From NCBI GenBank assembly GCA_942492025.1, contig CALODJ010000003.1:79648-143647 (forward strand): DNA of 64,000 bases. The letters are read 5' to 3'. The notes beneath the pieces were generated by a model. That model worked only from the letters and a program-made list of their open reading frames with translations. It had not been told where the DNA came from and did not search any database. The DNA comes from an uncultured Gammaproteobacteria bacterium (GTDB lineage Bacteria; Pseudomonadota; Gammaproteobacteria; SZUA-229). The translations under genes and the position numbers were made by a program. Positions within the stretch are counted from its first letter, which is position 1, and the number at the start of each line of letters is the position of its first letter. Below, in pieces: positions 17,510-56,850 of the stretch.

Positions 17510-17744
17510 TAACCCGCATTTCTCACCAGGCGGCGTTGAATACTGATAAGGCACTAATCCATTTAAGAGTATCCAGATGATCAGAAATACAGTGTGTTAT
17601 TCAAACAGGCCTATCACGGTTCAGGCTGGTCTTCGTGTCCGTAAGCTTGCTCTTCACTCAAACCGTAGCTATTGCTACGCTTTTCGCTCCAGAGCGGCTC
17701 CGTCCTGCGCCTGCGCCCGTGATCCTGGTGAGAAATGCGGGCTA
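17510..17744. mobile_element. MITE-like element with 21-bp terminal inverted repeats
   Basis: TAACCCGCATTTCTCACCAGG (17510-17530) and CCTGGTGAGAAATGCGGGCTA (17724-17744), 1 mismatch; 17673-17744 recurs at 55756-55838. Confidence 0.65.
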
Positions 17745-51911: not shown

Positions 51912-52574
51912 ATGCTTAACGCTAAATCGATGGCCGCCTTTTTGCTGACAGCTGGCCTGGCTATATCAGCCAGTCTGGCCGTGGCGGCTGACAAGCCCGT
52001 TGGCATAACGTCAAAAATGATGGATGCCGAAGTTGTTCACGATGGCAAGAAAGTGAAAATTACTCGCAGCCAGAACAACAAGAATACCGTCAATCCATCG
52101 TTTTCGAAAACTTCACGCCCGTGCCCGCCATTCTGTATCCAGCCGTCAACAGTGGCCGCGGGTGTCGAAACGATCGGTGAGCTCGAGCTCATAGATTACT
52201 TGAAGAAAATGGCAGCAGGTGATGAGAGCATCCTGGTTATCGACTCGCGCACACCAGACTGGGTCAGGAAAGGCACCATTCCCGGTGCGGTCAATATCCC
52301 ATGGACAAAGCTGAACCCTGCCAAGGGTGCAGACCCGATTTCGATCGGCGAAATTCTGCAGGACCAGTTCAACGTCAAGGAGACAGAAGGCCTGTGGAAC
52401 TTCAATGACGCCAAGACACTGGTGATGTTCTGTAACGGTATGTGGTGCGGCCAGTCGCCAAACAACATCAGGAACCTGCTCAAATTCGGTTACCCGGCCC
52501 ATAAACTCAAGTGGTATCGCGGTGGTATGCAGGACTGGGAGATCCTGGGGCTCTCGACCATTCCGGGTAAATAA
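51912..52574 (+). CDS. Periplasmic rhodanese-domain sulfurtransferase (SoxL-like)
   Basis: Signal peptide, KTSRPCPPFCIQP, VIDSRT, GTIPGAVNIPW, FCNGMWCGQS, WYRGGMQDW; GGAG RBS. Confidence 0.8.
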   Translation: MLNAKSMAAFLLTAGLAISASLAVAADKPVGITSKMMDAEVVHDGKKVKITRSQNNKNTVNPSFSKTSRPCPPFCIQPSTVAAGVETIGELELIDYLKKMAAGDESILVIDSRTPDWVRKGTIPGAVNIPWTKLNPAKGADPISIGEILQDQFNVKETEGLWNFNDAKTLVMFCNGMWCGQSPNNIRNLLKFGYPAHKLKWYRGGMQDWEILGLSTIPGK

Positions 52575-52599
52575 GTCCCGCATCGCCTGTTGATGACGG

Positions 52600-52624
52600 A
52601 GGCCGCCTCCAGGTGGCCTTTTTT
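52600..52624 (+). terminator. Rho-independent terminator
   Basis: AGGCCGCCT-cc-AGGTGGCCT followed by a T-run. Confidence 0.7.
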
Positions 52625-52631
52625 ATGTTTT

Positions 52632-53030
52632 TTCACCGCAAAGGCGCAAAGAACAAAGCTGAATTAACCGCAGAGGCGCAGAGGATTATCTATACGTTGT
52701 CATCTCATGGTTAGCGAAATCTTTGGATTATGCGGGAATATCCCATTGACTTGGTTAAGACGATGGCTGTTCAAATTTTTCCGGCCGATCGTAGGGTGCG
52801 CCGTGCGCACCGCGAATAATCAGTTCGCTCAACAGCTTCGGTGCGCACGGCGCACCCTACGATCGGTCCATTCAGCTGTCAGTTAATTTTTGAATCGTTT
52901 CCACGATCTGTAAGATCAGATCTGAGTCACTACAAAAAACGCTGCGTCACCGCGCCTCTGCGGTTGATTCAGCTGGATTCTTTACTCTAATAAGCAATTA
53001 ACTTTGCGTTCTTTGCGCCTTTACGGTGAA
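52632..53030. repeat. Nested composite palindromic repeat, copy A
   Basis: Outer arms TTCACCGCAAAGGCGCAAAG/CTTTGCGCCTTTACGGTGAA; second arms 52657-52679 / 52952-52974; central REP doublet 52791-52860. Confidence 0.85.
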
Positions 53031-53040
53031 ATCACGTATC

Positions 53041-53883
53041 ATGCAGCTCGAATTCACTAAAATGCACGGTCTTGGCAATGATTTCGTGGTGATCGATGCG
53101 GTCAACCAGGAGGTCGCTTTGACCGGTAATCAGGTACGCCGCATTGCTGACAGGCATTTTGGTGTCGGTTGTGACCAGCTGCTGCTGGTCGAACGCCCCA
53201 GGCTTGCAGCGGCAGAGTTTCGCTATCGGATTTTCAACGCCGATGGCGGCGAGGTGCAGCAGTGTGGCAACGGCGCGCGCTGTTTTGCCCGTTTCGTGCA
53301 CGACAAGGGTATGACAGGCAGTACCCATATCGCGGTCGAAACCGCAGCAGGCATGATCTACCTGATCCTTGAGGAAGATGGACAAGTCACGGTTGATATG
53401 GGTGTGCCCTCATTTGATCCAGCCTCGCTGCCGTTTGAGGTTGACGACCTGGAGCAGGATGAGACCGAATACCACCAACTTGTGGTGAATGGCGTAAAGT
53501 ATGCTATAGGTGCAGTATCGGTTGGCAATCCACATGCGGTGTTGCTGGTTGATTCAGTGGAGAGGGCACCTGTTGCTACGCTGGGAGCCGCCATCGAATC
53601 TCATGAGTGCTTCCCCGAGCGTGTGAATGTCGGTTTTATGGAAATCATGGACCGATCGCATATACGCCTGCGGGTATTTGAACGTGGAGCAGGCGAGACC
53701 CTGGCTTGTGGGACGGGCGCCTGCGCAGCGGTTGCGATTGGCGTCCACAACAGCTTGCTGGATAGTCCCGTTGAGGTTAGATTAAAAGGCGGCATGTTAA
53801 AGATTCGCTGGTCCGGTGATGGCAGTAGCCTGTTTATGACCGGGCCGGCTCAAACTGTATACGAAGGTAAAATGACATTGTGA
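53041..53883 (+). CDS. dapF: Diaminopimelate epimerase
   Basis: FTKMHGLGNDF, QCGNGARC, VGNPHAV, FERGAGETLACGTGA. Confidence 0.96.
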   Translation: MQLEFTKMHGLGNDFVVIDAVNQEVALTGNQVRRIADRHFGVGCDQLLLVERPRLAAAEFRYRIFNADGGEVQQCGNGARCFARFVHDKGMTGSTHIAVETAAGMIYLILEEDGQVTVDMGVPSFDPASLPFEVDDLEQDETEYHQLVVNGVKYAIGAVSVGNPHAVLLVDSVERAPVATLGAAIESHECFPERVNVGFMEIMDRSHIRLRVFERGAGETLACGTGACAAVAIGVHNSLLDSPVEVRLKGGMLKIRWSGDGSSLFMTGPAQTVYEGKMTL

Positions 53884-54602
53884 GTACACAAGCACAAAAA
53901 AAACAACAAGAAACGCTTGATACCGAACAGCAGCTAGTGGAGCTGCTCAAAGACTACCCCGACGTACTGGTGCGAAATCCAGCACTGCTGGCAGATCTCG
54001 AAGTCCCTCATCAGGCGGGCTCAGCTGTTTCCCTGATCGAAAAGCAGGTCAGCGTGTTACGCGAAAAGCTGCACACGAGCGACAAGCGCTTACGCGAACT
54101 GATGAATATCGCGCGTGACAATGAACGACTCGCCAGAAGCTGTCATCGGCTGGCTATCAACCTGCTCGGTGCCGAAGAGCTGGAAGATGTGGTCGGCATC
54201 GTGCTGGATGAACTGGGCATAGAACTCGGCGCCGACTTCGCTGAGATCCGTTTGATCACGGATGATGAGGACAGACTGAGCCGCAAACCGGCATTATTCA
54301 TCAGTAGCAATTCTGAACGTCTGAAATCTTTCCGCACAATGCTGGACAACAGAAAGCCGTTGTGCGGACGCTGTACGCAAGAGCAGAAGGAATTTCTGTT
54401 CGGTGATGATGCCGAGCACATTGGTTCTGCTGCGGTAATCCCGCTGGTAGCCGGCGCCAGGCTGGGCCTGCTGGGTCTGGGCGGCAGCGATCAACATCGC
54501 TTCAGTATCGCTATGGGTACCGAGTTTTTAACCCAGATTGGTGATCTGATCAGTGCGGCACTGGCGCTACATCTACAGCAAGATCACGCCGAGATTGGAT
54601 GA
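53880..54602 (+). CDS. DUF484 family protein (YigA-like)
   Basis: AVSLIEKQV, ARDNE, AMGTEFL; between dapF and xerC. Confidence 0.85.
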   Translation: MSTQAQKKQQETLDTEQQLVELLKDYPDVLVRNPALLADLEVPHQAGSAVSLIEKQVSVLREKLHTSDKRLRELMNIARDNERLARSCHRLAINLLGAEELEDVVGIVLDELGIELGADFAEIRLITDDEDRLSRKPALFISSNSERLKSFRTMLDNRKPLCGRCTQEQKEFLFGDDAEHIGSAAVIPLVAGARLGLLGLGGSDQHRFSIAMGTEFLTQIGDLISAALALHLQQDHAEIG

Positions 54603-55492
54603 GCTTCGAGTCTGATCTCGAAGCGTTTCACACATACCTGCAGTCCGAACGCAGGTATTCGCCGCATACGCTGACAGCCTATCATAACGATTTGAAGGCA
54701 TTTGTCGATTTCGGCCGGGAAAGAGGCCTGCACAGCTGGAAGCAAATGGACGATCTTCACGTGCGCGCATTCGTCGCCAGCCAGCACCGCAAGGGCCTCT
54801 CTGGAACCAGCCTGCAACGCCAGCTTTCAGCTGTCCGTAGCCTTTTCAATTTTCTCTGCCGGCATCATCGAGCCGAAAACAATCCGGCACAGGGCGTGCC
54901 CGCCCCAAAGGCGCCCAGGCGCCTGCCGGAAACATTGAGTGTTGATCAGCTCGAAGGCCTGCTTGCCTTTGCCGGTAATGATGATCTTGCCTGTCGGGAC
55001 CGTGCCATGCTGGAACTGTTTTACGGCTGTGGATTGCGGCTTTCAGAGTTGAGCGGTCTTGATATCGGCGACCTCGACTGGCAGCAGCAAACCGTATCGG
55101 TTATGGGCAAAGGGCGCAAGCAGCGCCATGTGCCGTTCGGCAACAAGGCAGTCACCGCTTTAAAGCACTGGCTACCGCATCGTGAGAGTCTGGCAAATGT
55201 GGGCGAAAAAGCGCTCTTTATCAGTCGCCGCGGCAAGCGCATCAGCAACAGCACTATTCAGCAAAGCCTGAAAAAACGTGCACAACAACAGGGTGAGGGC
55301 TTATCGCTGCATCCGCATATGCTGCGCCATTCGTTTGCATCACACCTGCTCGAATCGTCAAACGACCTGCGCGCCGTGCAGGAGCTGTTAGGCCACGCCA
55401 ATCTGAGCACAACGCAGATCTATACCCACCTCGATTTCCAGCACCTGGCGAGCGTGTACGACAAGGCGCATCCGCGGTCCAGGAAAAAGTAA
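54599..55492 (+). CDS. xerC: Tyrosine recombinase XerC
   Basis: SPHTLTAY, YGCGLRLSEL, GKGRKQR, HPHMLRHSFASH, LGHANLSTTQIYTH. Confidence 0.95.
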   Translation: MSFESDLEAFHTYLQSERRYSPHTLTAYHNDLKAFVDFGRERGLHSWKQMDDLHVRAFVASQHRKGLSGTSLQRQLSAVRSLFNFLCRHHRAENNPAQGVPAPKAPRRLPETLSVDQLEGLLAFAGNDDLACRDRAMLELFYGCGLRLSELSGLDIGDLDWQQQTVSVMGKGRKQRHVPFGNKAVTALKHWLPHRESLANVGEKALFISRRGKRISNSTIQQSLKKRAQQQGEGLSLHPHMLRHSFASHLLESSNDLRAVQELLGHANLSTTQIYTHLDFQHLASVYDKAHPRSRKK

Positions 55493-55971
55493 TTCACCGC
55501 AAAGGCGCAAAGAACGCAAAGAAAGAAGCAGGCGGTGGTTTACCGCAGAGGCGCAGAGGATTATCTATGCGTTTTTATCTCATAGTTAGCGAAATCTTTG
55601 GATTATGTGGGTACGTCCCGCTGACTTGGTAAAGACGATGGCTGTTCAAATTTTTCCGGCCGATCGTAGGGTGCGCCGTGCGCACCGTGAATCCTCAGTG
55701 TGCTGGGCTGTTTCGGTGCGCACGGCGCACCCTACGGCCGCTTCGCCCAAGCTGCTGCTACGCTTTTCGCTCCAGAGCGGCGCTTACGAACACGAATCCT
55801 GCGCCTGCTCCCGTGATCCTGGTGAGAAATGCGGGTTAGCTGTCAGTCAATTTCTGAATCGTATCCACAATCTGTAAGATCAGATCTGAGTCACTGCAAA
55901 AAACGCTGCATCTTCGCGCCTCTGCGGTTAATTCAGCTTTATCTTCGCGTTCTTTGCGTCTTTGCGGTGAA
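55493..55971. repeat. Nested composite palindromic repeat, copy B
   Basis: Collinear with copy A; REP doublet 55666-55735 plus a MITE right half at 55756-55838. Confidence 0.85.
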
Positions 55972-56067
55972 AAAAGCCTTGTGACAAGTATGTCAGTAAG
56001 AACCATTGAAACAGGTATAATCATCACCATTATCAGATAGCTGCCTTATTAACCCGTACACATTGCC

Positions 56068-56850
56068 ATGCTGATTACGCTTTCTCCGTCAAAAGGCCAG
56101 GATTTTGATTCTCCAAGTCCGAGCAACACCTACAGTAAACCGGAGTCATTGAAAGATTCTGAATTACTCATAAAAGAGCTGCGCAAGTACAAGCGACAGG
56201 ATATCCAGCAACTGATGGCTGTCAGTGAAAATATTGCCCAACTCAACGCTGAACGCTTCAAGTCGTTCAAAACCCCGTTCACGACGAAAAACGCCAAACA
56301 GGCGATCTTCGCCTTCAAGGGGGATGTGTACAGCGGAATTGAAATCGAAGAATACAGGGAAGCTGACCTCCACTATGCCCAGGATCATTTGCGTATTCTT
56401 TCGGGTTTGTACGGTTGCCTGCGGCCACTGGACCTGATTCAGCCTTATCGCCTGGAGATGAAAACCCGTCTGACCAATACGCGTGGCGAGAATTTGTATC
56501 AATTCTGGGGTGACAGCATCACGGATACTCTGAACAAGCAGCTGGAAAAACAGAAAGCGCCCGTGCTGGTCAATCTGGCTTCGAATGAATATTTCAAATC
56601 GGTCAAGCCGAAAAAACTGAAAGGCCGTTTACTCAATATCAACTTCAAAGAGACCAGGGATGGAAAAACACGCATCGTTGCTATCTTTGCCAAGCGTGCG
56701 CGCGGTATGATGGCGGATTACATACTGCGGAACCGTATTGAAAAGCCCGAACAGATCAAAAAATTCAACCAGGGCGGTTACCGGTTTTCGAGAGAGCTCT
56801 CTGACGACAAGCAATGGACGTTTGTTCGTCCCCAGCCCCCCGCTGCCTAA
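56068..56850 (+). CDS. yaaA: Peroxide stress protein YaaA (DUF328)
   Basis: LSPSK, FKGDVYSG, ILSGLYG, YRLEM, NLASNEY, AKRARGMM. Confidence 0.92.
   Translation: MLITLSPSKGQDFDSPSPSNTYSKPESLKDSELLIKELRKYKRQDIQQLMAVSENIAQLNAERFKSFKTPFTTKNAKQAIFAFKGDVYSGIEIEEYREADLHYAQDHLRILSGLYGCLRPLDLIQPYRLEMKTRLTNTRGENLYQFWGDSITDTLNKQLEKQKAPVLVNLASNEYFKSVKPKKLKGRLLNINFKETRDGKTRIVAIFAKRARGMMADYILRNRIEKPEQIKKFNQGGYRFSRELSDDKQWTFVRPQPPAA

Follow-up and report, generated by a model that had tools for sequence, protein, structure and literature searches.

Several described systems come close to the locus presented here. Paralogous sequences within one genome, for example the duplicate tuf genes and the rRNA operons, undergo concerted evolution by gene conversion. 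Miniature transposable elements with inverted repeats (MITEs), for example Correia/NEMIS (Neisseria miniature insertion sequences) and ERIC (enterobacterial repetitive intergenic consensus), derive from insertion sequences (ISs). Repetitive extragenic palindromic (REP) sequences form REPINs (REP doublets forming hairpins; Bertels and Rainey 2011, PMC3116915), and REP dimers are regularly found inside longer palindromes, in mosaic intergenic regions (Di Nocera et al. 2013, PMC3733652). Tandem heptamers of Xanthomonas and Nostoc form convergent inverted pairs close behind genes, and in related species such pairs still stand between the same genes (Rehm et al. 2015, PMC4692102). Here we analyzed a stretch of 64,000 nucleotides (the window) from the assembly GCA_942492025.1 of an uncultured Gammaproteobacteria bacterium (contig CALODJ010000003.1, positions 79,648 to 143,647). 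Two composites of nested palindromes, copy A (52632-53030) and copy B (55493-55971), lie in it on the two sides of the genes dapF, DUF484 and xerC. We consider it probable, at roughly two chances in three (0.68), that A and B represent turnover of repeats by recombination at two old hairpin stations, and not a mobile gene block.

A and B are collinear and 88-93% alike. Their nested palindromes had been described from the letters of the window (further referred to as the sequence-only reading), and we confirmed them by alignment, by a repeat search (direct repeats: 198 nt, 89%; 101 nt, 91%) and by single-strand folding, in which the nested stems were adopted by both A (z = -16) and B (z = -11) when compared with shuffles. 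A is bounded by a rhodanese gene's terminator and the start codon of dapF, and B by the stop codon of xerC and the promoter region of yaaA (Table 1). In both copies an outer hairpin, L1, encloses an inner hairpin, L2. The left arm of L1 is TTCACCGCAAAGGCGCAAAGAAC, and its right arms are 87-93% complementary to it. The left arm of L2 is T(A/T)ACCGCAGAGGCGCAGAGG, while the right arms share only a perfect core of 13-16 nt, GCGCCTCTGCGGT. In each arm, TTCACC (or TTAACC) is joined to two or three units of 8-9 nt in tandem, and these units are CGCAAAG(G/A) in L1 and CGCAGAG(G/A) in L2. L1 and L2 are 78% alike and therefore are two word variants of one family. The inner loop holds a unique filler of 100 bp, a doublet of GTAG-headed REPs and the right end of a MITE (MITE-Q); the junctions between these three parts are identical in A and B. 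B contains in addition one end of a second MITE (MITE-P).

The central layer of A and B resembles a REPIN, as it is an inverted pair of GTAG-headed REPs with a 26-nt spacer and is present in hundreds of copies. It differs in that no Y1 transposase gene flanked by this REP was found in the assembly, and in that the enclosing palindromes are a separate family with its own gene-bearing form. The arms resemble the tandem-heptamer pairs, as well as the cyanobacterial short tandemly repeated repetitive (STRR) sequences, since they consist of short tandem words of 7-9 nt and often stand as convergent inverted pairs behind an upstream gene. However, the A/B words CGCARAG are other words, and Rehm et al. 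treated their repeats as quadruplex-forming simple repeats, with no terminal TTCACC, nesting, cargo gene or exchange between sites described. Hairpin cassettes carrying GxxExxY (PF13366) genes, which we present below, have the same arm architecture and the L1 and L2 words, occupy fixed stations such as the carA|carB spacer and commonly have gene-less miniatures. In contrast to them, A and B are geneless and two layers deep, and their interiors seem to be exchanged between two stations flanking one operon. The likeness to MITEs lies in the terminal inverted repeats (TIRs), (C/T)TAG flanks and high copy number of MITE-P and in the approximately 35 copies of MITE-Q, but A and B hold only end fragments of these elements, joined to the REP doublet, and no parent IS of MITE-P was found in the assembly. 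As in concerted evolution, paralogues of one genome resemble each other more closely than orthologues of different species do; at A and B, however, short palindromic arms would be the anchor, the tract is non-coding and the symmetric arms would permit either orientation.

Among the parts of the locus, the REP doublets, the MITE fragments and the nesting of intergenic repeats are of known kinds. The locus offers unusually clean evolutionary evidence on the behaviour of such hairpins, as arms that have been fixed for the life of the genus are nearly unchanged and their contents turn over and are apparently copied in either orientation. It may serve as a test bed for arm-guided gene conversion, perhaps triggered by a nuclease, as a way of maintaining an element. 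It also warns against taking direct repeats around housekeeping genes as a sign of gene mobility.

We located the DUF484 gene in ten congeners (G001-G010; 65-81% protein identity; G000 is the 4.54-Mb genome assembly holding the window) and read the orthologous spacers from there. Double arms of L1 and L2 were present in both spacers in G002, G003, G005, G006, G008 and G010. G009 had them at B and at a contig end cutting A, while partial arms were detected in G001, G004 and G007. Thus the orthologous spacers, which were to be compared for empty sites, were filled in nearly all congeners, each with species-specific fillings. CTTTGCGTTCTTTGCGCCTTTGCGGTGAAATC, a 32-mer immediately before the dapF ATG, was identical at 29-32 of 32 positions (91-100%) in all ten species with data. 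The four-fold degenerate sites of dapF were 32-58% identical between species, which means that they are saturated. Therefore the arms must be either selected or continually homogenised. The DNA between the arms showed no conservation between species. The dapF-DUF484-xerC block was single-copy in G000 and in the ten congeners (one DUF484 match in each) and had the same neighbours wherever these were looked at. A third L1 and L2 double hairpin was present in G006 (L015:1210-1530), about 1 kb past site B, and its interior is a hairpin found also in both sites of G001.

Further, we masked the arms and compared every site with every other site across species. No interior was shared between species. 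Within species, the interiors of A and B were 88-93% identical in G000, and they were shared in direct orientation also in G008 (93% over 113 nt), G005 (86% over 147 nt) and G004 (75-83%). In G003 (97% over 115 nt) and G001 (91% over 82 nt) they were shared in inverted orientation. G006 shared short stretches only, inverted, and G002 and G010 shared none. The filler of G005 had exactly two genomic copies, and that of G008 had its two site copies and one weaker copy. Such sharing calls for copying of the interior between the two sites that recurred in separate lineages.

The pattern of sharing excludes a single ancestral duplication that simply diverged, as well as independent insertions of a multi-copy element. 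A single local duplication giving both A and B, followed by plain divergence and no exchange, could account for the 7-12% difference between A and B in G000, compared with roughly 1% between strains. We regard it as very improbable. The interiors differ entirely from species to species, yet A and B have them in common, in one orientation or the other, in G000 and five congeners and to some extent in G006, which requires recurrent homogenisation or replacement in single lineages. Still more doubtful, to the point that we hardly credit it, is the possibility that active small elements entered both hairpin loops independently, as target hot spots, with no copying between A and B. Hairpin loops are clearly preferred by REP doublets and MITEs, and both the REP doublet and MITE-Q are multi-copy; against this, the 100-bp left filler is confined to A and B in the genome, only two copies of the G005 filler exist, and the filler, doublet and MITE-Q meet at the same junctions in A and B.

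We observed ongoing change of the composites also on metagenome contigs of the same species. An identical XerC protein was encoded on 15 public contigs, ten of which we retrieved and aligned. These contigs were about 99% identical to the window in genes and the block was intact on all ten, yet the composites differed. L140, L143 and L146 had a 32-bp deletion fusing the L1 and L2 left arms of A, and L146 had an additional 32-bp deletion in the MITE-Q end. B of L140 was without the MITE-P piece (window 55743-55837 absent), and its REP doublet had the A-type spacer in flipped orientation. B of L145 had both the MITE-P piece and a directly oriented A-type spacer, while G000, L141 and L142 had the MITE-P piece with a MITE-P-type spacer. 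Because B of L140 is without it, the MITE-P piece in B is a later addition. Orientation variants were thus seen at two levels, as interiors inverted between sites (G003 and G001) and as a REP doublet flipped in one strain contig. In the simplest history, a REP-containing MITE-P would have inserted beside the doublet of B, and recombination between the two doublets would then have removed the intervening part, with crossover points that differ by strain. Insertion beside the doublet followed by such REP-by-REP recombination is the most likely origin of the MITE-P end in B.

In the reading that we prefer, turnover by recombination at old stations, A and B would be two old, fixed stations of a family of hairpin elements, with the L1 hairpin outside and the L2 hairpin inside. 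The interior would be copied between A and B by homologous recombination or gene conversion, for which the arms common to both would serve as primers. Because each left arm is the reverse complement of its right arm, either orientation of a donor could pair; inverted interior copies follow from such pairing and need no separate inversion step. A and B would be each other's partners because they are 2.9 kb apart and have about 55 nt of arms in common on each side. The elements would be selfish or tolerated DNA at gene ends and not a vehicle for the xerC block. How the recombination proceeds, whether a nuclease takes part and whether the dapF-proximal arm serves the host are matters of inference.

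The arm family reaches far beyond A and B. The pattern CGCARAGNCGCARAG, with at most one mismatch, was found 148 times in G000 and 4 times in a shuffled genome used as control. Each fairly complete congener had 30-270 matches, and the 69%-complete assembly G007 had 5. None was found in seven sister genera, which have the same genes. The exact 20-mer TTCACCGCARAGGCGCARAG was present on more than 119 contigs of Acidobacteriota, Planctomycetota, Chloroflexota, Bacteroidota, Desulfobacterota, Verrucomicrobiota and Proteobacteria, mostly as simple hairpins of 70-200 bp and in some cases as nests of two to four layers. Of the 92 arm loci in intergenic DNA, 36% were between convergent genes (background 20%) and 9% between divergent genes (background 21%); this preference for convergent spacers and avoidance of divergent ones is the behaviour of repeats tolerated at gene ends. 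We identified 20 convergent arm pairs in G000, and their contents were mutually unrelated. Neither the L1 and L2 hairpins nor the whole composite behave as MITEs, as the 20 pairs have no common interior and show no evident target-site duplication. Most L1-type hairpins of G000 enclose a REP doublet, a MITE or another hairpin. Together with L140, which is without the MITE-P piece, this bears out the proposal of the sequence-only reading that different repeat families insert into one another. A search of the literature for four arm 15-mers found no paper that contains these arm sequences, and a search on concepts returned only papers on REPINs and REP-associated tyrosine transposases (RAYTs) and general papers on inverted repeats. 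The enclosing hairpin family is very widespread and was not found described as an element in the searchable literature.

At two other loci we observed filled and empty sites. The PPIase|tetR spacer (PPIase, peptidyl-prolyl isomerase) had a double hairpin in G000 and G009 and was empty in six congeners, and the ABC|malic-enzyme spacer had one in G000 and G009 and was empty in two congeners. At these loci the bare double-arm scaffold behaves as an insertion. The layout with CGCAAAG outside and CGCAGAG inside recurs at several loci in G000 and G009. A fourth nested composite of G000, at C12:627836-628140, is located upstream of a malic-enzyme gene and is shared with G009 only; within its L1 arms stands a hairpin with the word CAGATGAA, and within that a REP doublet. 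A search for low-copy DNA in common between other nearby arm loci yielded mainly duplicated gene fragments and no further pairs like A and B. In one case, a 254-bp piece of a coding gene occurs twice, 3.2 kb apart and 96% identical (C6:518822-519075 and C6:522072-522325), and ends exactly at a hairpin arm.

The sequence-only reading had proposed that the composite moves as a unit and that the direct repeats could mobilise, delete or amplify the xerC block. Transposition of the whole composite, arms and filling together, across the block would account for the collinearity of A and B over about 400 nt, and it could draw on the double-arm insertions at the two loci above and on the recurrent layout of outer and inner words. 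We consider it improbable, and the comparison did not support the proposal. BLAST of A and B against the whole assembly found the left filler, and so the full composite, at A and B only, which is the outcome that had been named in advance as speaking against it. Further, the L1 and L2 arms are already present at both orthologous spacers in most congeners, so that only the interior would have been copied. No transposase linked to the arms and no target-site duplication were seen. In G000 and the ten congeners the dapF-DUF484-xerC block was not found at another location or copy number, nor was it absent from a relative, as would be expected of a composite transposon. We obtained no evidence of its mobilisation, deletion or amplification in these 11 genomes or on the ten same-species contigs.

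We observed that arms of the same type flank genes of the GxxExxY family (PF13366). L2-type arms flank full-length PF13366 genes in G002 (G002_C186) and G006 (G006_C111), a gene with one internal TGA in G010 (G010_C187) and a truncated gene in G004 (G004_414k). L1-type arms flank PF13366 genes in G008 (G008_C277) and G009 (G009_C113). Contigs L089 and L122, from other organisms, have the same arms around PF13366 homologues, and on L089 a miniature stands beside a full copy. At one shared station (L164-L177) the PF13366 gene is orthologous, and both its arms carry the word CGCAAAG in G008 and CGCAGAG in four species. Therefore all units on both arms change their word together. G000 has a single PF13366 gene (C5:7399-7740), placed between carA and carB within inverted arms of a third word, CAGATGAA (GTCCACAGATGAACGCAGATGAAC arms). 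Cassettes are present at the carA|carB station also in G004, G010 and G002, with different arm words in G010 and G002. Literature searches returned no paper connecting PF13366 to hairpin arms.

A and B carry TCACC and tandem words of 7-9 nt, inverted on two sides, and the same words flank PF13366 genes elsewhere. Filled and empty sites of the family were seen at other loci, and A and B themselves were filled in nearly all congeners. Judging by their arms, A and B are gene-less copies of the PF13366 hairpin-cassette family. A complete element carries a small GxxExxY gene of a nuclease fold, PD-(D/E)XK, between the arms. It is conceivable, though we consider it unlikely, that the tandem-word arms are recognition sites of the GxxExxY PD-(D/E)XK nucleases, and that a break at an arm is repaired from any arm-matched station, with contents copied in either orientation in a manner similar to homing. 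If this were true, the dapF-xerC bracket, with its two arm-matched stations, its interiors homogenised anew in G000 and five congeners and its arms at 91-100% identity next to saturated neutral sites, would be a natural record of such copying, and the hairpins would form a pan-bacterial, undescribed class of exchangeable cassettes. Two other suggestions about cargo were rejected. The fillers are not decayed PF13366 genes, as tblastn found no remnant, and PF05635 four-helix-bundle genes are not the cargo, as G000 has none.

Several observations weigh against recombinational turnover at stations of this family. In G000, neither L1 nor L2 arms flank a PF13366 gene. When 12 proteins of the family were compared by tblastn with all A and B sites, no PF13366 remnant was found in the fillers, and the best match (E = 0.02) fell on a REP doublet; A and B are classed as gene-less copies by the identity of their arms. 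No target-site duplication was evident at the TTCACC...GGTGAA ends of the hairpins. The exchange is not universal, as the interiors of A and B have nothing in common in G002 and G010. Further, the start codon of dapF is preceded at about 10 nt by a GGTGA that belongs to the L1 right arm, and arm conservation could reflect host selection and not selfish maintenance.

In a rival account the hairpins are kept by host selection as functional RNA or DNA structures, for example as stems processed by RNase III, as insulators delimiting the dapF-xerC transcript or as the ribosome-binding region of dapF, with the matched flanks selected too. The predicted stems are very stable, and arms are set right next to the stop codon of xerC and to the rhodanese terminator. 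In front of dapF, ten species agree at 91-100% in the L1 right arm with GGTGAAATC, also where the L1 left arm is missing, while neutral sites are saturated, and A and B match each other in G000 and five congeners. However, the arm family is absent from the sister genera having the same genes, is spread patchily across phyla, shows insertion polymorphism and has a full form with a nuclease-like gene, all of which is typical of selfish elements. Strains also tolerate the 32-bp deletion that fuses the L1 and L2 arms. On balance we find host selection an unlikely explanation of the locus, and we keep repeat turnover by recombination as the preferred one.

We analyzed the fillings of the two composites separately. 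The filler shared by A and B had been described as unique. This holds for its left part (A positions 57-150 within the copy), which genome-wide BLAST of G000 found at A and B only, but not for the right filler, which is the end of MITE-Q, an element of ~260 bp with about 35-37 copies (consensus match 85% identity over 144 nt). Because the centre of MITE-Q is itself a REP doublet, the doublet together with the right filler is half of MITE-Q. The left filler was also considered as a diverged left half of MITE-Q and this was rejected, as its local alignment score was matched by 202 of 500 shuffles. In G000, C12:472602-472969 holds three units in tandem, each made up of one REP and a MITE-Q end, which suggests local amplification of this module.

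The central GTAG REP doublet, reported by the sequence-only reading with different 28-nt spacers, was indeed present, and its spacers, measured at 26 nt, do differ between the copies. Its arms, CGTAGGGTGCGCCGTGCGCACCG, are 28 nt long in A and 23 nt in B and 100% complementary. The REP agrees with the GTAG-tagged imperfect palindrome of 20-40 nt expected of a REPIN, and there were 610 REP heads genome-wide. The doublet gave about 500 BLAST matches over both orientations, so there are roughly 250 doublets, a multicopy inverted pair. The spacer of the B doublet was found also at C3:389164-389724, and a similar one at C1:881-1187.

B was said to carry about 100 bp including the right half of the MITE seen at 17673-17744. 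This proved correct: the extra piece of about 95-98 bases is 98 bp of MITE-P, matches the right end of that MITE and replaces GATCGGTCCAT of A. MITE-P has an 18-nt TIR, CCCGCATTTCTCACCAGG, with 515 TIR matches and about 260 copies. Its modal lengths are about 240 bp and 307 bp, and (C/T)TAG stands on either flank. With its TIRs, the target duplication at its flanks and its high copy number it qualifies as a MITE, and its 307-bp variant contains a REP doublet. TIR pairs located 1-3 kb apart in G000 enclosed ordinary genes only, and no parent IS with MITE-P ends was found among them. A search for RAYTs identified ten Y1 transposase genes (PF01797) in G000, several of them flanked by other REP-like repeats. 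Within 1.2 kb of these genes this GTAG REP was missing, save for a single gene that has a doublet about 630 nt downstream of it. Three Y1 genes (C10:382774-383529, C3:571782-572516 and C1:11210-12187; IS200-like, RAYT-like, 244-325 amino acids) each have their own short flanking inverted repeats, for example GGGTCAGAGAGCAATTGTTGCTAATAT, unlike the GTAG REP.

Table 1. Features of the dapF-DUF484-xerC locus and its two flanking composites, in window coordinates.
Feature	Position	Strand	Remarks
Intrinsic terminator of upstream rhodanese gene	52598..52621	+	10-pair stem then T run; rhodanese domain; A begins 10 nt beyond
A, L1 left arm	52632..52658		TTCACC and CGCAAAG octamers
A, L2 left arm	52664..52684		TTAACC and CGCAGAG octamers; same arm type flanks PF13366 genes in congeners
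A, left filler	52685..52784		2 genome copies (A and B)
A, GTAG REP doublet (REPIN-like)	52785..52866		28-nt arms, 26-nt spacer
A, right end of ~260-bp MITE-Q	52867..52934	+	MITE-Q centre is a REP doublet
A, L2 right arm	52940..52967		inverted-repeat search
A, L1 right arm	53002..53030		ends 10 nt before dapF ATG
dapF (diaminopimelate epimerase)	53041..53883	+	domain match
DUF484 / GAF-like gene	53880..54602	+	one copy in G000 and in each of ten congeners
xerC-type tyrosine recombinase	54599..55492	+	identical protein on 15 public contigs
B, L1 left arm	55493..55521		first base directly follows xerC stop codon
B, L2 left arm	55539..55559		inverted-repeat search
B, left filler	55560..55659		second and last genomic copy
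B, GTAG REP doublet	55660..55737		spacer of the type inside the 307-bp MITE-P variant
B only, one end of MITE-P (TIR CCTGGTGAGAAATGCGGG)	55738..55835	+	same family as MITE at 17673-17744
B, right end of MITE-Q	55836..55898	+	MITE-Q family search
B, L2 right arm	55904..55931		inverted-repeat search
B, L1 right arm	55943..55971		upstream of yaaA promoter region

No sigma-70 promoter for dapF was predicted inside A, and an Rfam scan of 52000-56500 with E up to 1 gave only chance microRNA matches on the REP doublet. A 90-amino-acid open reading frame at 55605-55877 (+) lies wholly inside B and has no Pfam match, while public gene callers put a gene of 64 amino acids on the opposite strand; both are probably artefacts of the repeats. 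After B, a stretch at 55990-56035 (GTATGTCAGT...CATTGAAACAGGTATAAT) is conserved in most congeners and is probably the yaaA promoter. Sox-type and flavocytochrome genes in G000 suggest that the organism is a sulfur-oxidising gammaproteobacterium.

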